A stretch of 14,774 nt of DNA, taken from Candidatus Bipolaricaulia bacterium (GTDB lineage Bacteria > Bipolaricaulota > Bipolaricaulia > RBG-16-55-9). The notes under the pieces are model-generated. The model was not told the DNA's origin and ran no database searches. It was given only the letters and a program-made list of their open reading frames with translations. The stretch spans positions 1 to 14,774 of the forward strand of contig JBDGQO010000021.1 in the NCBI GenBank assembly GCA_042219045.1, in the 5' to 3' direction. A program made the translations under genes and the position numbers. Positions 3-10,121 of the stretch are shown here, piece by piece. Position 1 is the first letter of the stretch; each line of letters opens with the position of its first letter.

Positions 3-1136
3 GGCACCGCGACGCTCAGCGTGACCAACACGGGCGAGGACGACCACGCCGTCAACCTCGAACTGCGCATTGAGGCGACCCAAAACGGCGACACCATCAC
101 GTCATCAACCCCCTCTTTGCCGGATACGTGGACTGTTGGCGACCTCGGACCCGGCAACACGGCAACGAAGACGGTCGAGGTCACCGTCGATCGCAGTGCG
201 CGGGACGAGTCGTTCGAGCTCAAGCTGAGCGCGGAAGCCACGAACGAGGACTGCCGCCCGGGTCACACCGAAGGCCGGTCGGATAACGTTGACTTCACCT
301 TCGAGCCCATCGGCGACTCGGACGGAGACGGCGTTCCGGACGACGAGGACAATTGCCCCGACCAGTTCGGCGTTGCGGAGAACAACGGCTGTCCGGCATC
401 CGTCTCCTGCCAAGGTCAAGACTCGATCAACCCCGAGCCCGGCGACAACGTCCGCGAACGGAACGTCGGCTCCGATCCCGTTAAGACGGGTAGCGAGGAC
501 GTCAACGAGACGAACGATGAGAACGAATCGTCGGCCAACAAGCTCTCGAACTACGGCTACACGTATTACTACTGCTACACCTGGGACATGGCGGGCTACA
601 ACTACGCCTACGAATACGTCTACAAGTGGACGCCGGATGCCGGGTCGCCCAACCCGAATCCGACCCCGAACCCGCCATCGACGTTGAACGACGATGTCGA
701 TCCGGATCCCAATCCCGACCCGAACCCGCCGAACTCGGCGCCGACCGCGAGCGATGACTCGGCGACCACACAAAAGAACGAATCGGTCACGATCGACGTC
801 ATGGCCAACGACAGCGATCCGGACAACACGAACGATTACTGGTGGGCCTCGTCCCAGGATAAGACCTTGGACCCGAACCAACTCCAGGTCTCAAGCAGTC
901 CGCAGAATGGGTCAGCCTCGGCCAACAATGGGGAGATCACCTACACGCCTGCTCAGGACTTCACCGGGACGGACTCCTTCACCTATCAGGTCTGCGACCA
1001 GTCGGGCAAGTGTGCCGAGGCCACCGTCGAGGTGACTGTGGAGCAATCTGGCACTAGCGGAGGATGTAAGGACGAGGATGACAACGATGACGGCGACGAT
1101 GACGATTGCGACGACGATGACAGTGACGACGACTGA
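3..1136 (+). CDS. 5'-truncated acidic surface/secreted multi-domain protein (Ig-like domain, TSP3-like Ca-binding repeat, Tyr-rich segment, Pro/Asn linker, Big_9/cadherin-like domain, Asp-rich tail)
   Basis: Frame is open from the window edge (GTATLSVTNTG...), so the GTG at 21 is probably internal. DSDGDGVPDDEDNCPDQFGVAENNGCP resembles a thrombospondin type-3 repeat. APTASDDSATT...TIDVMANDSDPD...ITYTPAQDFTGTDSFTYQVCD...ATVEVTV is a typical Ig-like/cadherin-like repeat. Confidence 0.8.
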   Translation, partial: GTATLSVTNTGEDDHAVNLELRIEATQNGDTITSSTPSLPDTWTVGDLGPGNTATKTVEVTVDRSARDESFELKLSAEATNEDCRPGHTEGRSDNVDFTFEPIGDSDGDGVPDDEDNCPDQFGVAENNGCPASVSCQGQDSINPEPGDNVRERNVGSDPVKTGSEDVNETNDENESSANKLSNYGYTYYYCYTWDMAGYNYAYEYVYKWTPDAGSPNPNPTPNPPSTLNDDVDPDPNPDPNPPNSAPTASDDSATTQKNESVTIDVMANDSDPDNTNDYWWASSQDKTLDPNQLQVSSSPQNGSASANNGEITYTPAQDFTGTDSFTYQVCDQSGKCAEATVEVTVEQSGTSGGCKDEDDNDDGDDDDCDDDDSDDD

Positions 1137-1277: not shown

Positions 1278-2426
1278 CTATTGGGCGGCCTCGAGCTGCT
1301 CCTGCCGGTGGGTGATCGACTCGCGAGCCCGCTCGCATTGGCCTGACAGCAGGTTAGCCCGCGGCTCGGGCGCGACGCCGGACCCCTTCATCAAGTTGTT
1401 GACGTCTGACTGGATGGCGGACACGGGCGAGTGTTCCGGGTGCTGCAGGCTAAAGTTGTGGCCGAGCTCGTGAGCGAGCGTCGCCAACATCTGTTCGGGC
1501 AACTCGCCATCGACGAGCGCGCCCCAACGGGCCACCGCGAACTTGGGCCAGGTGCCGCCGCTGAAGCCCTCGATCGGTCGCCAGTCTCCTTGCCACTTCG
1601 CCTTGATGGTCGAGCCCATCAGAATGACGTTGTAGCCCCGGAACGCCTCGTCGGTCTGCCCTTGCGCCGCTTCCCAGAGCTGCATCGTCGCCTGGCGCAT
1701 CAGCGTGTCCACCTGGCCCGAATAGCGAATGACGCGGTTGCCGTCTTCACCTTGGGCATAAATCTGCTCGCTCAGCGGCCGGCCGGAGATTTGAATGTCC
1801 TCAGGCTGGACGACCCACGCGCCGTTCATCTCGAAGCCGAGGCCGCACTGGTCCCAGATCCCGCTCAAGGCGGGCTTGATATCGTTGTGCAGTGCCTGGA
1901 GGACCTCTTGGCGCGGCATGCCGAGCATCGAGGCCTCGCCGAAGCTCGCCCCGTTGCTGAGCGTGTTGGCCCCGTCGTCGAGGATGAAGACGTTCAACGG
2001 AACGTCTTTGTCAATGGGAAGCTGCTGCTCGAGCACCGATCGGAAATTGTAGCGCGGCGGCTCACCGCAGGTGAAGCTGAACTTGCGCGGCGGGTTGCGC
2101 AAGCCCGTCTCATCCACAAGCCGAACGGACAGCGTGATCTGCTGGGCGAAGGATGTGCAGGGCAGTTGGAAGCTGAGCTGATCGTCGGATGCGTGGGCGT
2201 CATCCACGGACACGGTCTTGGGCTCGTAGCGCCCGTCGGCCACGTAAAACTCGGCCTTGGCAATCTCTGAGCTGAACCCGCGGAACGTGATTTCGCCTTG
2301 GGCGGATGAGCTGTTCGGGACGGTCGCGGGGAAGTCGATGTTCGTGACCATGGGGGTGGCGGCGCCGCCCTGGAAGGCGACGAGCGCGAGTCCGATGAAG
2401 ATCAAGCCGAGTGCTTTCCGTGTCAT
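1278..2426 (-). CDS. Secreted zinc-dependent metallopeptidase (metzincin-like)
   Basis: N-terminal signal peptide MTRKALGLIFIGLALVAFQGGA; C-terminal TLAHELGHNFSLQH (HExxHxxxxxH) followed by a Met-turn-like NNLM; promoter and riboswitch upstream. Confidence 0.75.
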   Translation of the reverse strand: MTRKALGLIFIGLALVAFQGGAATPMVTNIDFPATVPNSSSAQGEITFRGFSSEIAKAEFYVADGRYEPKTVSVDDAHASDDQLSFQLPCTSFAQQITLSVRLVDETGLRNPPRKFSFTCGEPPRYNFRSVLEQQLPIDKDVPLNVFILDDGANTLSNGASFGEASMLGMPRQEVLQALHNDIKPALSGIWDQCGLGFEMNGAWVVQPEDIQISGRPLSEQIYAQGEDGNRVIRYSGQVDTLMRQATMQLWEAAQGQTDEAFRGYNVILMGSTIKAKWQGDWRPIEGFSGGTWPKFAVARWGALVDGELPEQMLATLAHELGHNFSLQHPEHSPVSAIQSDVNNLMKGSGVAPEPRANLLSGQCERARESITHRQEQLEAAQ

Positions 2427-2430
2427 TTGC

Positions 2431-2511
2431 CCTTCGGCAGCCCGGCGGTCCGTTAGCGTTGGGATCCGTGGCTTTGCGTCCCCGCCTCTCGACGGGTTTG
2501 CCCTGTCGAGG
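2431..2511 (-). promoter_or_regulatory. c-di-GMP-I (GEMM) riboswitch
   Basis: Minus strand reads CCTCGACAGGGCAAACCCGTC-GAGA-GGCGGGGACGCAAAGCCACGGATCC...GGACCGCCGGGCTGCCGAAGG. It matches the GEMM hallmarks GGCAAAC, a GNRA-capped P2, GACGCAAAGC, P3 and the terminal RCCGA, and ends 4 nt before the ATG at 2426. Confidence 0.9.
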
Positions 2512-2717: not shown

Positions 2718-3842
2718 ATGAGGGAACTCAAGGCGTTGGCGATCCTGGGCACGCGGCCCGAGGCCGTGAAGCTGGCCTCGGTCATTGGCAGTCTGCATGC
2801 CTCCGACGCGTTTGACGCCCGTGTCGGCATCACGGGCCAGCACCGCGAACTCATTCGGCCCTTCCTCGGGGTCTTCGGCATCGAGCCGGACTGGGACCTG
2901 GCGCTCATGGCCCCGGATCAGACGCTGACCGACTTGACATCAGTTGCGCTTAGCAAGCTCCGGGAGACGCTGGATCAGGAACGACCCGATGTGGTCGTCG
3001 TTCAAGGGGACACGACGACGGCGTTCGCGGCGACCTTGGCCGCGTTCTATCAACGGATCCCGATCGCCCACGTCGAGGCCGGGCTCCGTTCCGGCAATCG
3101 AGACAATCCGTTTCCCGAAGAGGCCCACCGTCGACTCGTGGATGCCATATCGGATTACCTGTTTGCGCCCACCGACGACGCGCGCGCCAATCTGATCGCC
3201 GAGGGGCATCCCGCCTCGCGGATATGGGTCACGGGCAACACGGCCATCGACGCCATGCTGGACGCGGTCGACGATCCACGCTTGGACGAGGTCAAGCTGC
3301 CCATCGAGTGGGACGGCGATCGGCGGCTCGTCGTCGTCACCGCGCACCGTCGCGAGAGTTTCGGCGCCGACTTGGCCAACATCTGCCACGCACTTCGTCG
3401 CCTGGCCACGGAGCGAGACGACGTGGAGATCGTCTATCCCGTCCACGTCAATCCCCATGTCCGCGTTCCGGTGTGCGAGCGGATTGGCCATGAGGACCGG
3501 ATCCATCTCATCGATCCCCTGCCCTATCTGGAGTTTGTCAAGCTGCTCCGTTGCGCGCACGTCGTCCTGACCGACTCCGGCGGCATCCAGGAGGAGGCCC
3601 CCGCCCTTGACGTGCCCGTGCTCGTCATGCGCCGCGCGACCGAGCGTCCCGAGGTCGTGGAGAGCGGGGCCGGTCGACTCGTCGGCACCGACATCGACGG
3701 CATCGTGAGCGCGACCTCGCGGGTGCTGGATGACGCCGAGGAACGCGATCGCATGGCCCGCGCGCCGAACCCGTTCGGCGACGGGCACGCTGGGGCGCGG
3801 ATCGTACGGGCTTTGGAGGCGGCGTTCGGAGCGCCGGAGTGA
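2718..3842 (+). CDS. wecB: UDP-N-acetylglucosamine 2-epimerase (non-hydrolysing)
   Basis: Motifs GTRPEAVKLA, TGQHRE, VQGDTTT, HVEAGLRS, PFPEE, TDSGGIQEEAP, ERPE, NPFGDG. Confidence 0.95.
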   Translation: MRELKALAILGTRPEAVKLASVIGSLHASDAFDARVGITGQHRELIRPFLGVFGIEPDWDLALMAPDQTLTDLTSVALSKLRETLDQERPDVVVVQGDTTTAFAATLAAFYQRIPIAHVEAGLRSGNRDNPFPEEAHRRLVDAISDYLFAPTDDARANLIAEGHPASRIWVTGNTAIDAMLDAVDDPRLDEVKLPIEWDGDRRLVVVTAHRRESFGADLANICHALRRLATERDDVEIVYPVHVNPHVRVPVCERIGHEDRIHLIDPLPYLEFVKLLRCAHVVLTDSGGIQEEAPALDVPVLVMRRATERPEVVESGAGRLVGTDIDGIVSATSRVLDDAEERDRMARAPNPFGDGHAGARIVRALEAAFGAPE

Positions 3843-3851
3843 CGGGCCCGT

Positions 3852-3880
3852 TTGAACGCATGTGTCCATCCGCCTAGAAT
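3852..3880 (+). promoter_or_regulatory. Sigma70-type promoter of the ABC operon
   Basis: TTGAAC-17 nt-TAGAAT, about 160 nt upstream of AGGAGG-N4-ATG(4045). Confidence 0.6.
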
Positions 3881-3891
3881 ACATCGGTATG

Positions 3892-4042
3892 CAGGCATTG
3901 GCGACACATACGGTGGCCCTTGCGCCGTGCCAATCGAAATCAACCGGCGATAACGGGCTTCGCCCGCCCTTTCCGACATGCCTGGAGCCGACAACCGCTC
4001 CAGCCTTCCTCGTCAACCGCTAAAAGCATTCGCAAGGAGGAA
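3892..4042 (+). promoter_or_regulatory. Structured 5' leader, candidate cis-regulatory RNA of unrecognised class
   Basis: Pairings seen: CAGGCAT/ATGCCTG (3892-3898/3978-3984); ATTGGC+ACGG/CCGTGCCAAT; CGGGC/GCCCG; CTGGAGC/GCTCCAG; TTCCTC (4006-4011) complementary to GAGGAA (4037-4042) over the SD. Confidence 0.4.
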
Positions 4043-4044
4043 CC

Positions 4045-5577
4045 ATGAGACTGACGCGACGTGCGGCGCTTCGCGCCCTGGGATCAACGCTCGTCATGGG
4101 CCCGCTGGTGGCTCGATCTCTGACGTCGGCGGCTCCGGCTCGGCCCCACCAGGCATCGAGCAACGTGCTCCGAGCCGCCATCCAGCCCATTCAGCAGACC
4201 GACCCCGCGTTCATCTCCGCCGAGAGCGAGATCACGTTCGCCAACAACGTCTACGACTACCTGGTGGACGTCGACGCGGACAACCGCATCCAGCCCCGCC
4301 TGGCACGCGACTGGACGGTCAGCGATGACGGTCGGACCTATCGCTTCCAGTTAGCTGAGGGCGTGCGCTTCCACGATGGAAGCCCGCTCACCCCAGCGGA
4401 CGTGGTCTGGACGTTTGAGCGACTGCGCGACCCCGAGGTCGGCGGAGCCACGGCCGACCTCTACGCCAACATCAAGGCGATCGAGGCCTCGGGCAATCGC
4501 GAGGTGACATTCCGACTGACTGAACGGAACCCGTTCTTTCTCTTCGACCTGAGTGACAATCACGCCGTGGTCGTGCCGGAGGGCGTCACGGACCTGACCG
4601 TGTTTAATGGAACGGGGCCGTTCCGGGTCGAGAGTGAGGGCATCGACGACGGCGTCTCATTGGCGGCCAACGAGAATTACTTCCTGGACGGGCAGCCCAA
4701 GCTGAGCGGACTCGAGCTGCAGTTCTTCAACGATCAGAGCGCTGCCATCGCCGCCGTGCGCGGCGACCAGAGCGACCTCGTCTGGCGCATCTCCAACGCC
4801 CAGCTGCAGAGCCTCCAAGGCCGTGCCGACCTGCAGGCGATCGACATTCCCACGAACCAGTTCGATCTGGTTCGCATGCGCAACGACCAGGAGCCGGGCA
4901 GCATTCCGGAAGTCGTCCAAGCGATGAAGCTCGCCACCGATCGACAGGCGATATTCCGCTCCGTGCTGCTCGGGATCGGCGCTCAAGGCCGCGATAGCCC
5001 GATTGGACCGACCTATCGCGACTACTTCACCACCGCGACTCCCTTGCCGGATCGCGATCCCAAGCGGGCACGCCAGTTGCTGCGCGAGGCAGGCTTCCCC
5101 AACGGGCTGGACATGACGCTCCACCTGCCTAACTCCGGCAATCGACCCGACTTTGCCCAAGTGTTGCAGCAGCAATGGGCCGAGGCCGGCATCGACGTTG
5201 AGCTCCAGCTCGAGCCGGAAAGCATCTACTACGGCGAAGGCAACTGGCTGGAGGTCAACCTCGGCATCACCGGCTGGGGCCATCGGCCGATCCCGCAGTT
5301 CTACGTCGACGTCATGCTCACGTGCGGCGCCAAGTGGAACGAGATGAAGTTCTGTAGCGAGGACCTCGATCAGGCTGCCGAGATCGCCGGAACCACGCAA
5401 AATGAACGGAAGCGGCGCCAGGCGTACGCCGAGATTCAACGGATCTGCATCGAAGAGGTCCCCATGGTCGTTCCCTACTTCTTTCCGGCCACGGCTGTCC
5501 TCCGTGAGGGCTTCCGCGGCTTCAACCTCAAGCCGTTCCCCGGCCGGACCGACTTCCGCACCGTCGAGACCGCCTGA
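4045..5577 (+). CDS. ABC transporter substrate-binding protein, peptide/nickel (SBP family 5), Tat-exported
   Basis: TRRAALR twin-arginine signal; PRLARDWTVSDDGRTYRFQLAEGVRFHDGSPLTPADVVWTF and NGTGPF family-5 motifs; SD AGGAGG. Confidence 0.92.
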   Translation: MRLTRRAALRALGSTLVMGPLVARSLTSAAPARPHQASSNVLRAAIQPIQQTDPAFISAESEITFANNVYDYLVDVDADNRIQPRLARDWTVSDDGRTYRFQLAEGVRFHDGSPLTPADVVWTFERLRDPEVGGATADLYANIKAIEASGNREVTFRLTERNPFFLFDLSDNHAVVVPEGVTDLTVFNGTGPFRVESEGIDDGVSLAANENYFLDGQPKLSGLELQFFNDQSAAIAAVRGDQSDLVWRISNAQLQSLQGRADLQAIDIPTNQFDLVRMRNDQEPGSIPEVVQAMKLATDRQAIFRSVLLGIGAQGRDSPIGPTYRDYFTTATPLPDRDPKRARQLLREAGFPNGLDMTLHLPNSGNRPDFAQVLQQQWAEAGIDVELQLEPESIYYGEGNWLEVNLGITGWGHRPIPQFYVDVMLTCGAKWNEMKFCSEDLDQAAEIAGTTQNERKRRQAYAEIQRICIEEVPMVVPYFFPATAVLREGFRGFNLKPFPGRTDFRTVETA

Positions 5578-8500
5578 TGCGTGACCCGTCCGAGGAGGGC
5601 GCCGAGCCAACCGCGTCGGCGCCCTCCGATAGCTTGGGCCGAACGTTGCGCGGCCTGCTCAGGTGGACGAGCCGCGTGGCCCGACACGCCACCCGGCTGA
5701 TCGTTCGCCTCTACCGCCGACCCATGCCAGCGCTCGGGGCGACCCTCGTGGTCGCATTCTTCGCGCTCGCGCTCGTGGGACCCTGGGTCGCGCCGTTCAG
5801 CGCCACCGAACAGAACTTTCAAGCGACGCTAGAGAGCCCATCGGCCCAACACCCCTTCGGCACCGATCGCTTCGGTCGTGACATCTTCAGTCGCGTGATC
5901 GTCGGCACGCAAAGCATCTTCGAGCTGGCCGGGATCGGCACGCTACTGGGCGTGCTGATCGGAACGGGATTGGGACTGCTGAGCGGCTTCCGCGGCGGCT
6001 GGTTCGACGAGATTTTGATGCGGATCTTCGACAGCATCCTGGCCATTCCGGCGCTGCTGTTGGCGCTGCTGCTGTTGGGCACCATCGGGCCCGCGGCCAC
6101 GGACGATCTCTGGATCTTCCACGCGTTGACGGTCCTGTCGCTCGGGATGATCGAGCCGTCGGAGGTGTCGGTGCTGCTGGTCATCGCCATTGTCTATACC
6201 CCCATCGTCGCCCGAGTGGTGCGCAGCGACGTCTTGGCGATCAAGACGCGCGACTACGTCGAGACGGCCCGCCTGCAGGGCGAGTCGACCGCCTACATCC
6301 TCACTCGCGAGATTTTGCCGAGCATCCTGCCCGCGCTGTCCGTGGAAGCCGCGCTGCGGTTCTCCTACGCCATCTTCCTCGTCGCCTCGCTCGGCTTCCT
6401 CGGCGTCGGCGTGCAGCCGCCCACGCCCAACTGGGGCCTCATGGTCCGCGCCGCCCGCGACTTCACCGACATTGCTCCCTGGTGGCTCATCTTTCCCGCC
6501 GGCGCGATCTCGCTGCTGGTGGTCGGCATGAACCTATTGGCCGATGGCCTGAAGCGCGTGCTCCAATCCTCGGAGGATCTGGCCACCTCAGGGGCCCGCG
6601 CGTCCGTCCCGGTGCACGGTGCGGACGAAGGGTCCAATCCCAACGAGGACCGCGAGTCGACGCCGTCCGAGACGGCCGTGTTGGCCGCGCGCGACGTCAC
6701 CGTGGCCTACGAGAGCCAAGGGCGCGCATTGGACGCCGTCCGCAACGTCTCGCTCGCCATCGAGCCGGGCGAGACGCTCGGGCTCGTCGGCGAAAGCGGC
6801 AGCGGCAAGTCGACGCTGGCGCTGGCGATGATGCGCTATCTGCCCGCCAACGGGTGGGTCCGTCATGGTCAGATCGCGTTCGACGGGCGCGAGCTGCTCG
6901 ATTTGGACGAAAGCGGACTCCGCGACCTATGGGGCAAGGAGATCAGCCTCGTGCCCCAGAACCCCTCGGCCTCGCTCAATCCATCGCTCCAGATCGGAGA
7001 GCAGATCGCCGAGGTGCTGCAGCGCCACACGGACCTCAACGGGCCCGATCGCGAGCGCCGCATTCGGGAACTGCTCGACCAGGTCCGCATTGGGGATCCC
7101 GAGCGGGTTGCGAACAGCTACCCGCACGAGCTCTCCGGCGGCATGCAACAGCGGGCCATGATCGCCATGGCGCTGTCGACCTCGCCCAAGCTGCTGGTGA
7201 TGGACGAGCCGACCACGGGCTTGGACGTCACCACGGAAGCGACCGTGTTGGACCTCGTCGACGACCTGATCGCGCAGCGCGAGACGTCCATGCTCTACAT
7301 CACCCACGATTTGGGCGTGGTGGCGCGCATTGCCGATCGTGTGGCCGTGCTCTATGCCGGCGAGCTCGTGGAGACCGCCCGAACGACCGAGCTCTACGAG
7401 CGCCCCTTGCACCCGTACACGCGAGGCCTGCTCGACAGCGTTCCGCGTCTCGGCGAGCGGAAGGAGATCGTCCGGCTCTCGTCGATGCGCGGCCGCATTC
7501 CCGCGCCCACCGAGCGGCCCGGCGGCTGCGTGTTCGCCCCCCGGTGCCCCGTTGCCGTCGATCGCTGCCATGCGGAACGGCCCACCCTCGATGTGGCCGC
7601 CAGGGGAGATGTTGCCAACGCTCGCCACGTGCGCTGCCACCGCTGGGCCGAGATCGACCGCGGCGAGATCCACGCCGGCCGGCGCAGCAAGGCCGCTAGC
7701 CCGTCGCGCGAGGCAGCCGATTCCGACGGCCATGCGCCCGTGCTCGGCATCGCCCAGCTCCACGTCCATTTTCCCGTCAAACGTTCCCTCACCGAGGTGG
7801 TCCGCGGCCGCCCCAGAGACGTTGTCAAGGCCGTTGACGGGGTGGGGCTCAACGTCCATGAGGGAGAGACGCTGGGGCTCGTCGGCGAAAGCGGCAGCGG
7901 CAAAACGACGCTGGCGCGCTCAATCCTCGGCCTCGTGCCCCCTTCGGAGGGACGTCTCGAGCTACAGGCACATGAGCTCCCGACGACCCTCGACGGGCGC
8001 GACCTCGACGTCCTGCGACACCTGCAGCTCGTGTCGCAGAATCCCGAGGAGGCGCTCAATCCCTACCAGACGATCGGCCAGATCCTGCAGCGGCCCCTGC
8101 GCCGCCTCCAGGGCAAGCCCAAAGCCGAGGCGGCTCGCGACGTGGATCGGCTCCTCGACTGGGTCCGCTTGGGGCCCGAATACGCGTCCCGACTCCCCGC
8201 TCAGCTAAGCGGGGGCGAAAAGCAGCGCGTCGCCATTGCCCGGGCGTTTGCGGCGCGTCCGGACCTCGTCGTCTGCGACGAGCCGACCTCCGCGCTGGAC
8301 GTGAGCGTCCAGGCCCGCATCCTCAACCTCTTGGCGGATCTGCAGTCCGAAGGCGGCGGCGCGTATCTCTTCATCTCGCACGACTTGGCCGTGGTCGGCT
8401 ACCTGGCCGACGCCATCGCCGTGATCTATCTCGGCCAGATCATGGACCTGGGCCGCCGCGAGACGTTCTTCGAGCCGCCGTTCCATCCTTACACGGAGGC

Positions 8501-8792
8501 GCTGCTCTCATCCGTCCCGTTGCTGGACCCGACCCAGACGACGTCGCGCGTCCACCTGAATGGCGACATCCCGAGCCCGACCGACGTCCCCTCGGGATGC
8601 CCGTTCCACACGCGCTGTCCTCGCTATTTGGGCAACATCTGCGAGGCGGAAGCGCCGCCCATCCGAGAGACATCCGACGGACGACGTATTGCCTGCCACA
8701 TTCCGCTGGAGGAGCTGGAACGCGAGCAGGAGCCGATGGGGATGCCGTCCGAGCCACAGGCGCCAGAACCGACCGAGGAGGCCCGCGACTGA
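5577..8792 (+). CDS. Fused peptide-ABC permease (DppC/OppC-like) plus two ATPase domains (DppD- and DppF-like)
   Basis: HPFGTDRFGRDIFSR and EAA-like loop DYVETARLQGES; two GLVGESGSGKS/T Walker A motifs; LSGGMQQR and LSGGEKQR; two DEPT Walker B motifs; two HPYT-containing C-terminal Cys domains; TGATG overlap with the upstream gene. Confidence 0.9.
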   Translation: MRDPSEEGAEPTASAPSDSLGRTLRGLLRWTSRVARHATRLIVRLYRRPMPALGATLVVAFFALALVGPWVAPFSATEQNFQATLESPSAQHPFGTDRFGRDIFSRVIVGTQSIFELAGIGTLLGVLIGTGLGLLSGFRGGWFDEILMRIFDSILAIPALLLALLLLGTIGPAATDDLWIFHALTVLSLGMIEPSEVSVLLVIAIVYTPIVARVVRSDVLAIKTRDYVETARLQGESTAYILTREILPSILPALSVEAALRFSYAIFLVASLGFLGVGVQPPTPNWGLMVRAARDFTDIAPWWLIFPAGAISLLVVGMNLLADGLKRVLQSSEDLATSGARASVPVHGADEGSNPNEDRESTPSETAVLAARDVTVAYESQGRALDAVRNVSLAIEPGETLGLVGESGSGKSTLALAMMRYLPANGWVRHGQIAFDGRELLDLDESGLRDLWGKEISLVPQNPSASLNPSLQIGEQIAEVLQRHTDLNGPDRERRIRELLDQVRIGDPERVANSYPHELSGGMQQRAMIAMALSTSPKLLVMDEPTTGLDVTTEATVLDLVDDLIAQRETSMLYITHDLGVVARIADRVAVLYAGELVETARTTELYERPLHPYTRGLLDSVPRLGERKEIVRLSSMRGRIPAPTERPGGCVFAPRCPVAVDRCHAERPTLDVAARGDVANARHVRCHRWAEIDRGEIHAGRRSKAASPSREAADSDGHAPVLGIAQLHVHFPVKRSLTEVVRGRPRDVVKAVDGVGLNVHEGETLGLVGESGSGKTTLARSILGLVPPSEGRLELQAHELPTTLDGRDLDVLRHLQLVSQNPEEALNPYQTIGQILQRPLRRLQGKPKAEAARDVDRLLDWVRLGPEYASRLPAQLSGGEKQRVAIARAFAARPDLVVCDEPTSALDVSVQARILNLLADLQSEGGGAYLFISHDLAVVGYLADAIAVIYLGQIMDLGRRETFFEPPFHPYTEALLSSVPLLDPTQTTSRVHLNGDIPSPTDVPSGCPFHTRCPRYLGNICEAEAPPIRETSDGRRIACHIPLEELEREQEPMGMPSEPQAPEPTEEARD

Positions 8793-9745
8793 TGGGCCGC
8801 TACGTCCTGCGCCGCCTCGGCTTTCTGCTCCTGACGCTGGCGCTGACGTCGATCTTGGTGTTCGGCGTCATGCAGCTGGTGCCGGGTGACGTCGCGCGCA
8901 TCGTCCTCGGGCGCGAGGCGAGCCCCGACGCCGTGGCCGAGCTCCGCCGTGAGCTGGGCTTGACCGAACCGCTGCCCGTCCAATACGCGCAATGGCTCGG
9001 GAACTTCGTCACCGGCGACTGGGGCCAGGCGTACACGTTCCCCCAACAGCCCGACATCCGGCCGTTGGTCATGGAGAAGTTGGGCGACTCCCTGCGACTC
9101 GCCGTGCTGGTGTTGCTCTTGGCCTTGCCGCTGTCGATCGCCGTGGGCGTCTGGGCCGGGCTCAACGAGAACCGTTGGCCGGACAACGCCGTCAGCATCG
9201 GATCGTTGGCGGCCGTCGGCCTCCCCGAGTTCGTCACGGGGCTGATCCTGATCGAGATATTTAGCTACGCGTTCGGTTGGTTGCCCGGGTCGGCGACCGG
9301 GGCTGCCGACTTGCCGTTCGTTGAGGCGCTGCCCCAGTTGATCCTGCCCGCCCTGACGGCGACGCTGGTCCTGTTGGCGTACATCGCCCGCCTCGTGCGC
9401 GCCGGCGTCATCGAAGAGCTCAAAAAACCCTACGTGCGCACGGCGGCGCTCAAGGGCCTGGCGACGCGCGTCGTCCTCGCCAAGCACGTGCTGCGCAACG
9501 CGCTGTTGCCCACGATCACCGTCATCGCCATCAGCTTCGGCTGGCTGATCGGCGGCCTGATCGTCATCGAAGTCGTGTTCAACTATCGGGGCCTGGGGTT
9601 GCTGCTCCTGACGGCCATCGACCGGCGCGACCTGTTGCTCGTCCAGGCGATCACGATGGTCATTGTCACGGGCGTTGCTCTGGCCAACTTGGCTGCCGAC
9701 CTGCTCTACGCCTATCTCAATCCGCGGATCCGGCTCAACGATTGA
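8792..9745 (+). CDS. Peptide-ABC permease (DppB/OppB-like)
   Basis: True start MGRYVLRRL at 8792 (TGATG overlap; the track start at 8597 is over-extended); VPGDVA, LGLTEPLPVQY, GDWG, YVRTAALKGL, KHVLRNALLP, LAADLLYAYLNPRI. Confidence 0.92.
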   Translation: MGRYVLRRLGFLLLTLALTSILVFGVMQLVPGDVARIVLGREASPDAVAELRRELGLTEPLPVQYAQWLGNFVTGDWGQAYTFPQQPDIRPLVMEKLGDSLRLAVLVLLLALPLSIAVGVWAGLNENRWPDNAVSIGSLAAVGLPEFVTGLILIEIFSYAFGWLPGSATGAADLPFVEALPQLILPALTATLVLLAYIARLVRAGVIEELKKPYVRTAALKGLATRVVLAKHVLRNALLPTITVIAISFGWLIGGLIVIEVVFNYRGLGLLLLTAIDRRDLLLVQAITMVIVTGVALANLAADLLYAYLNPRIRLND

Positions 9746-9810
9746 CCAACAGCGAAACCGCCCGCTGAACTCGGGGCATTTTGGCTCGATATCTTGACGT
9801 GCGCGCTAAC

Positions 9811-9985
9811 GGGGAGGAAGGGAGAGCAAGCAACAGAAGGCCACCCGGCTGGGCTTGCTCATGGCTCCCTGAGCAAAAACCCACAGGCAGGAGGTGGGAA
9901 ACCTGTGGTAAAACTCTGGGAAGCCTAGCTTGTGGGAACCCGATCGCCAGCCGAGTGCCTTCTTCCCCCCCTCTCACCGGTCCCC
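9811..9985 (-). ncRNA. Rod-shaped ~175-nt structured RNA with central bubble (6S RNA-like; identity unproven)
   Basis: Nested stems 9811-15/9981-85, 9822-26/9971-75, 9835-52/9947-63, 9863-73/9914-25 and 9881-87/9902-08. Plus-strand C-A mismatches become G.U pairs on the minus strand. A minus-strand promoter candidate lies just upstream. Confidence 0.5.
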
Positions 9986-10012
9986 TCAACTATGGCTAAG
10001 CGTTAATGATGC

Positions 10013-10041
10013 TTTCTAGCATAAACGGCCAGTCACGTCAA
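10013..10041 (-). promoter_or_regulatory. Possible promoter for the candidate ncRNA
   Basis: Minus strand TTGACG-17 nt-TAGAAA with TGn extension; the final T of the -10 box is missing. Confidence 0.35.
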
Positions 10042-10121
10042 CCATCCCGTTCTCCCGTCCGTGGGATCGTCGACGCCCGTAAGGCGTCCCACAAGCTCAT
10101 GTCTTGCGAGTTTTATCGGTG

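Follow-up and report, generated by a model that had tools for sequence, protein, structure and literature searches.

In the genome of a Candidatus Bipolaricaulia bacterium, a conserved and structured 5′ leader was found upstream of an ATP-binding cassette (ABC) importer operon. It matches no Rfam family and occludes the ribosome-binding site of the first gene of the operon, which encodes a family-5 solute-binding protein (SBP). The DNA analyzed, here called the window, comprises 14,774 nt of contig JBDGQO010000021.1 (assembly GCA_042219045.1). From the letters alone, an earlier reading (the original prediction) had proposed this leader as a new riboswitch, with a multi-way junction as its aptamer and an expression platform acting on translation. 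We consider the chances about even that it is instead a lineage-specific cis-regulatory leader which protects the 5′ end of the mRNA and throttles translation, possibly with a sequence-specific partner. The elements of the leader are listed below; probabilities are for the Boltzmann ensemble in the window and in a sister species, and SD denotes the Shine-Dalgarno sequence.

3852 to 3880, plus strand: sigma-70-like promoter, TTGAAC, 17 nt, TAGAAT, from a search for promoter-like sites.
3887 to 4044, plus strand: 5′ untranslated leader of the ABC importer operon, about 158 nt, from the promoter to ATG 4045.
3887 to 3981, plus strand: 5′ domain, with closing helix GUAUG 3887-3891/CAUGC 3977-3981 (probability 0.99 to 1.00 in both species).
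3982 to 4003, plus strand: hairpin CUGGAGC, 8 nt, GCUCCAG (probability 0.95 to 0.98 in both species).
4005 to 4040, plus strand: SD-sequestering hairpin, anti-SD CUUCCU 4005-4010 with AGGAGG 4035-4040 (probability 0.79 in both species).

The conservation of the leader was assessed against G001, the single congeneric genome available, and all leader conservation figures rest on this one pair. The two genomes share a syntenic block of 10.9 kb with 77% identity overall. Within it, the leader was identical at 144 of 158 positions (91%), with 58 of 59 identical over 3986 to 4044 and 86 of 99 over the putative aptamer region. The segment 3943 to 4042 was the top-ranked 100-nt window of the block at 96%, tied with a window in a fadB-like gene, and only 0.07% of the 100-nt windows in the block were as conserved. 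Just inside the SBP gene, identity fell to 55 to 75%; on the other side, the promoter region 3843 to 3886 retained 38 of 44 positions. The leader evolves more slowly than nearby sites, at 91% identity compared with 61 to 74% at third codon positions and 50 to 67% in other intergenic regions. In detail, third-codon-position identity in the flanking genes was 73.6% (epimerase), 61.4% (SBP), and 53.5% (third flanking gene), and the intergenic regions 2427 to 2717 and 9746 to 10121 were 50% and 67% identical, respectively, the former including a cyclic di-GMP (c-di-GMP) aptamer at 81%. This single genome pair provides good evidence for purifying selection on the non-coding leader.

The placement of the 14 leader substitutions was then compared with the RNAalifold consensus fold. 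Ten fell in unpaired columns, two were one-sided changes, and two formed one compensatory pair (A3910-U3928 to G-C), so that none of the consensus pairs was broken. The one-sided changes, U-G to U-A and G-C to G-U, preserved pairing, the former lying in the closing helix 3887-3891/3977-3981. G-U pairs and changes of this kind are compatible with the plus strand alone. When the same substitutions were placed at random (1,000 trials), 1.8% of the trials attained the consensus energy of the real pair and 2.0% its structure conservation index. The substitution pattern supports a constraint at the RNA level, acting on the plus strand. Among the matches listed, contigs from four DNA sequencing runs (four studies) covering 3600 to 4400 represented relatives that were 6 to 10% diverged; these have three leader variants in common with G001, namely 3919 C>A, 3928 T>C, and 3970 T>C, and they were not used for covariation.

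The predicted boundaries of the leader were consistent with this strand assignment. The promoter-like site at 3852 to 3880 was the only one in 3600 to 4200, where 0.0 were expected (50 shuffles), and both its -35 and -10 hexamers were unchanged in G001. From this TTGAAC/TAGAAT promoter, transcription is predicted to start near 3887, in agreement with position 3886 in the original prediction, and the leader is therefore taken as 3887 to 4044, about 158 nt. It sits between the promoter-like site and the SD/ATG (4034 to 4047), on the same strand as the SBP gene, and it shows neither a terminator-like site nor a clear decoy SD. No RNA run carrying this sequence was among the 14 runs found. The promoter-like site, with the Pfam assignment of the downstream gene, bears out the earlier claim of a long leader upstream of a peptide-family ABC importer, here an SBP_bac_5 operon.

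Folding was judged by minimum free energy (MFE), by helix probabilities in the Boltzmann ensemble of both species, and against 200 shuffles. The signal was concentrated in the 3′ part of the leader: 3982 to 4047 had a z score of -2.87, with 1 of 200 shuffles as good, while the whole leader had a z score of -1.39 and 22 of 200 shuffles folded as well. The hairpin at 3982 to 4003 was predicted as originally drawn, and its sole G001 substitution (3991) falls in the loop. The adjoining SD hairpin is 100% identical in G001; it pairs the anti-SD with most of the SD itself, AAGGAGG 4034-4040. The pairing probability of the SD core was 0.94 (window) and 0.96 (G001), compared with 0.74 and 0.77 when the upstream sequence was shuffled, and the observed pairing was reached by 3% and 7% of the upstream shuffles, respectively. 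In these folding models, the SD occlusion is real but modest. It exceeded 90% of shuffles in only 6 of 31 orthologous leaders, the window and G001 included, and it is therefore not a shared trait of the transporter family.

The sequence elements named in the original prediction were all located at the positions given there, including the inverted repeats CAGGCAT 3892-3898/ATGCCTG 3978-3984 and CTGGAGC 3982-3988/GCTCCAG 3997-4003, TTCCTC 4006-4011, GAGGAA 4037-4042, and the two copies of a repeated motif, GGCGACACATACGG at 3900-3913 and GGCGATAACGG at 3946-3956. The fold built from them fared less well. The proposed closing stem CAGGCAU/AUGCCUG had an ensemble probability of 0.00 in both species, its 3′ strand reading AUACCUG in G001, which introduces a C-A mismatch. 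The two bulged hairpins had probabilities of ≤0.01 in the window; in G001, the outer part of the first reached 0.29 and the inner part of the second 0.90. As drawn, the whole structure had an energy of -29.8 kcal/mol against an MFE of -53.0, i.e., about 23 kcal/mol above it. An aptamer of that shape was not supported: its fold is not favored, and the MFE structures of the two species do not have it in common. The proposal that the 3982-4003 hairpin competes with the closing stem also falls away because the better-supported helix 3887-3891/3977-3981 abuts that hairpin without overlapping it. Sequestration of the SD was recovered, but in a register one off, 4005-4010/4035-4040 having a probability of 0.79 and the register first proposed 0.12. 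The repeat, expressed after the fact as GGCGA-N(2-5)-ACGG, was enriched, with six copies in the window compared with 1.94 expected (4 of 200 shuffles reached six), but the first leader copy ends in GCGG in G001, and the repeated motif as such is not conserved between the two sequences.

Searches for known RNAs and for further family members delimited the leader to its genus. At the gathering score, the 4,227 models of Rfam 15 matched nothing in the leader, and their sole match in the whole window was a c-di-GMP-I-GGC riboswitch at 2432 to 2511 (minus strand); as this was found 1.4 kb away by the same scan, the scan works on this DNA. At E ≤ 10 with permissive filters, the only match in 3780 to 4120 was a 14-bit HIV-1_SL4 on the minus strand, inside the coding sequence. 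The original prediction had asked for such a scan, and its failure to match the leader by eye to known riboswitch classes was borne out. DNA BLAST of the leader against 61 genomes retrieved G001 alone, all other matches having E > 0.005 and spanning 15 to 40 nt. A covariance model (CM) built from 3887 to 4004 found exactly one copy in the source genome (G000) and one in G001; neither 101 relatives nor 151 genomes sampled from the phylum (the two sets overlap) yielded a further match at E ≤ 1. The phylum is small, with only families f1 to f11 in the genome collection used.

The same absence was observed upstream of orthologous genes. At E ≤ 1e-120, 23 of the 184 class genomes carried an ortholog of the binding protein (50 to 63% identity outside the genus), and relatives were also found at 48 loci in genome contigs (best outside the genus, 57%) and 40 in metagenome contigs (best, 54%). 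No leader homologue was found upstream of the relatives from the genome, metagenome, and class-wide protein searches. With filters off, the CM gave no leader match at E ≤ 1 at 33 orthologous loci (50 to 65% protein identity); the sole match located in a leader (L137:152-219; 8.6 bits, E 8.2) scored below its own reverse strand (9.2 bits). The original prediction had named a lack of conservation upstream of orthologs as evidence against itself, and with no credible leader match at these 33 loci, that lack was therefore observed beyond the genus. The orthologous leaders are 65 to 115 nt long and lie behind their own -10 boxes, with hairpins that, read by eye, vary by lineage. An Rfam scan at the gathering score of 19 orthologous loci and the locus of one more distant relative (L056) found no riboswitch in any leader. 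Local alignment to 12 orthologous leaders gave scores above shuffles for L051 (z 3.6; 1.5% of shuffles) and L034 (z 2.5), the former matching a 22-nt GC hairpin that resembles 3910-3931; with 12 tests made, both similarities were taken as chance. In the part of the literature that was seen, no paper was found that describes, for this lineage or a related one, an RNA motif preceding peptide-type ABC operons.

A separate leader was observed at four orthologous loci of genus g31 (L139, L140, L143, and L144), each of which carries its own short conserved element about 75 nt upstream of the SBP start. After a -10-like TAGGCT, it forms a GC hairpin (GCCGUC...GACGGC) whose loops vary and which immediately precedes the SD. 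Its sequence has no relation to 3887-4044, and it illustrates the lineage-specific leaders of this transporter.

Taken together, these data are best accommodated by a leader that acts in cis within one lineage. Its terminal helix would tie the first five nucleotides to 3977-3981, next to the 7-bp hairpin at 3982-4003, and a base-paired 5′ end of this kind would protect the mRNA from 5′-end-dependent decay. Pairing of CUUCCU 4005-4010 with the AGGAGG of the ribosome-binding site would throttle translation initiation of the binding protein. We infer the transcription start, the mRNA stabilization, and the translational throttling from the promoter and the predicted helices. Because the 3′ two thirds of the leader are so highly conserved, something probably reads the sequence itself as well, be it a protein, a small RNA, or a ligand.

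Several observations weigh against this interpretation. The interior of the 5′ domain has an MFE structure that differs between the species, and the domain is no stabler than its shuffles (z -0.39 in the window and -0.19 in G001). The minus strand of 3982 to 4047 also folds well (z -2.55), the SD hairpin by itself reaches a z score of only -1.21, and a purine-rich SD in a C-rich context is often paired by chance (shuffled mean, 0.74). The compensatory pair 3910/3928 is not significant, since at least one such pair arose in 30% of the random trials; moreover, it is ambiguous, since 3910 A>G makes a better partner for 3859 in the alternative inverted repeat 3857-3866/3903-3912, which would be relevant for read-through transcripts only. 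The structure conservation comes from 14 substitutions between two sequences, and the start at 3887 is itself a prediction. Finally, 58 of 59 identical positions are more than a helix needs, and a sequence-reading partner or a role at the DNA level may be the cause.

The first of these causes was considered as an explanation in its own right, in which a small RNA or an RNA-binding protein acts in trans on C/A-rich repeats beside the ribosome-binding site. Control of this logic is seen in enterobacteria, where the small RNA GcvB regulates the dppA and oppA leaders. The hexamer CAACCG occurs at 3941-3946, 3992-3997, and 4014-4019, within the direct repeats CGACAACCGCT (3989-3999)/CGTCAACCGCT (4011-4021) and TCAACCG 3940-3946/4013-4019. 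The two 3′ copies are predicted to fall in loops and have no substitution in G001, and a factor reading the sequence would also account for the identity over 3986 to 4044 beyond what helices alone require. The first copy, however, is CGACCG in G001, the occurrence of a 6-mer three times within 160 nt is only borderline after correction for all 6-mers (a rough estimate), and neither BLAST nor the CM recovered a similar element from the rest of the genome. No partner was identified, and as the sole explanation a trans-acting factor is considered unlikely.

A riboswitch restricted to the genus was weighed next, in which the 5′ domain 3887-3981 would bind a metabolite or ion related to the transported substrate and thereby change access to the ribosome-binding site. 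The leader is long, has a multi-helix 5′ domain and an SD hairpin, and is better conserved than the c-di-GMP aptamer of the same window (91% and 81%, respectively); its substitutions avoid or preserve the consensus pairs (p of about 0.02), no known family matches it, so that it would be new, and the substrate of the binding protein is unassigned. Against this stand the unremarkable stability of the 5′ domain and its dissimilar MFE structures, together with the order of conservation, the expression platform being better conserved than the putative aptamer (58/59 and 86/99). As to mutually exclusive pairings, the SD hairpin is predicted (probability 0.79), the stems first proposed to compete are not supported (0.00 for the closing stem), and no terminator was found. 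No conserved alternative pairing between the SD hairpin and the 5′ domain was seen; the only other anti-SD candidate, CCUUGCG 3918-3924/CGCAAGG 4031-4037, has two mismatches in G001. Conservation of an aptamer with covariation across diverged lineages was not found either, the data comprising two genomes with one non-significant compensatory pair. The CM copies are confined to one in each of these genomes in the sets searched, and none of the 33 orthologous loci, with their short and lineage-specific leaders, gave a match. A genus-restricted riboswitch is therefore judged quite unlikely. A similarly low probability is attached to its most far-reaching form, in which the leader would be the first example of a rare riboswitch or RNA sensor, restricted to one genus of a small and mostly uncultured phylum, that detects the true, possibly non-peptide, cargo of an importer with an unusual fused permease-ATPase-ATPase subunit; 3943-4042 would then be both ligand pocket and translational gate.

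Conservation at the DNA level was held to be very doubtful as well. Transcription factor operators might overlap the promoter and the initially transcribed region, as exemplified by the 10-nt inverted repeat 3857-3866/3903-3912, which flanks the -10 box and the predicted start. The repeat is 90% complementary, 9 of 10 pairs are kept in G001 despite two substitutions in the right arm, and the promoter region is also conserved (38/44). The conservation peak 3943-4042, however, spans +57 to +156 relative to the predicted start, well away from the usual repressor sites, and 46 bp separate the half-sites. Among 11 open reading frames (ORFs) scanned against Pfam, none was recognized as a regulator gene, and the one-sided changes fit G-U pairing in RNA on the plus strand.

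An ordinary untranslated region with no dedicated function, its similarity stemming from a local recombination tract or from chance, was assigned a similarly small probability. The single comparison genome and the weak thermodynamic signals over most of the leader would fit such a view, but the flanks on both sides are much more diverged (55 to 75% just inside the SBP gene), and the top 100-nt rank combined with structure-preserving substitutions is unlikely for neutral sequence. Least probable is a leaderless 44-codon upstream ORF (3889-4023) whose translation would open the anti-SD hairpin and couple to translation of the binding protein. The frame begins with an ATG 2 nt downstream of the predicted start; in both species it stays open and ends within the SD hairpin, leaving 21 nt to the main ATG. 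Of its codon changes, however, 4 are synonymous and 8 non-synonymous, the substitutions are spread 6/3/5 across the three codon positions, every one of the 4 changes in its best-conserved half is non-synonymous, and an open frame of 44 codons has an estimated chance of about 1 in 3 at this G+C content. As neither a synonymous nor a third-position bias was present, it was rejected as a coding element.

The source assembly of 2.4 Mb is 89% complete and consists of 105 contigs. In it, the leader occupies most of the 202-nt gap between the epimerase gene and the importer operon, which encodes a binding protein, a permease fused to two ATPases, and a second permease:

2718 to 3842, plus strand: wecB-type UDP-GlcNAc 2-epimerase gene (TIGR00236, 1.5e-138).
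4045 to 5577, plus strand: family-5 SBP of the peptide/nickel/glutathione type (Pfam SBP_bac_5, 1.1e-71), with start codon ATG 4045.
5577 to 8792, plus strand: OppC-type permease fused to two ABC ATPase domains in one 1,071-amino-acid ORF (OppC_N, BPD_transp_1, two ABC_tran, and two oligo_HPY domains).
About 8792 to 9745, plus strand: OppB/NikB-type permease; the start is approximate, and profiles match from residue 1 with the start at 8792.

In Opp/Dpp/Nik-type systems, the permease and the two ATPases are usually encoded by three separate genes. The ATPase domains of the fused ORF are DppD-like and DppF-like. Read off the start of the translated ORF, the N terminus of the binding protein appears twin-arginine-like. 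Substrates of family-5 binding proteins include peptides, nickel, glutathione, and opines. Here, the binding protein reached none of the NCBIfam equivalog cutoffs, its best scores being 126 bits against a cutoff of 600 for Opp5A_nikA (nickel NikA-like) and 120 against 594 for a GsiB-like model. Its closest relatives in the PDB are 5u4o (an unnamed binding protein; 2.3e-34), Lmo0135, and YliB. With no cutoff reached and with these as the best solved relatives, its cargo could not be assigned. The closest relatives of the binding protein outside the phylum (52 to 57% identity) were in metagenome-assembled genomes titled Chloroflexota, Chloroflexia, and Promineifilaceae. The patchy spread of the orthologs, in 23 of 184 class genomes and with relatives in another phylum, suggests horizontal transfer of the operon.

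Two other non-coding elements were observed in the window. The c-di-GMP-I-GGC riboswitch (RF03167) reached 68.8 bits (E 8.4e-15), above its gathering score of 59; its 81% aptamer identity in G001 stands beside 15 to 40% in the remainder of its intergenic region. It lies directly 5′ of a 382-amino-acid ORF (1278 to 2426, minus strand) with no Pfam or NCBIfam match, which may encode an unknown protein under c-di-GMP control. The neighboring ORF (3 to 1136, plus strand) carries Big_9/cadherin-like adhesin domains. In the convergent intergenic region 9746-10121, an island at about 9840 to 9935 was approximately 88 to 92% identical to G001, with flanks at 40 to 70%. It holds a CCACAGG...CCUGUGG hairpin around AGGAGGUGGG, and has no Rfam match at the gathering score; a small RNA, a small ORF, and a 3′ element are all conceivable.

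What the leader means depends on which explanation holds. If its role is confined to adjusting stability and translation, it adds another lineage-specific untranslated region, of local interest for annotating an uncultured lineage; a ligand or a partner would raise its importance. A sensor in the leader would name the cargo of a binding protein to which no substrate could be assigned. Strong conservation in one sister genome cannot tell a riboswitch from other sequence-reading mechanisms.

Among known systems, riboswitches with translational platforms (TPP, SAM-II, and c-di-GMP-I) resemble the leader in being cis-acting 5′ leaders of transporter operons with several helices and the SD in a hairpin. 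Unlike them, the leader has no Rfam match, no aptamer conserved beyond one genus, and no conserved switching helix, and its putative aptamer is thermodynamically unremarkable. ROSE and fourU RNA thermometers are leaders that occlude the SD without a ligand, and they share with this leader an imperfect hairpin that pairs a pyrimidine tract with the SD (4005-4010/4035-4040). The leader matches neither family in Rfam, and its hairpin has a 24-nt interior carrying a small stem. The favored reading, that of a leader which shields the 5′ end and tempers translation, finds a parallel in the leaders of Escherichia coli ompA and Bacillus subtilis aprE, in which a 5′-terminal stem-loop stabilizes the mRNA. 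There is no sequence relationship to either, the start is predicted here, and a long-range helix that encloses a 95-nt domain takes the place of a simple hairpin at the 5′ end. As in those leaders, a helix engages the first nucleotides of the predicted transcript (probability 0.99), at the head of a long leader that precedes the gene of an exported protein.

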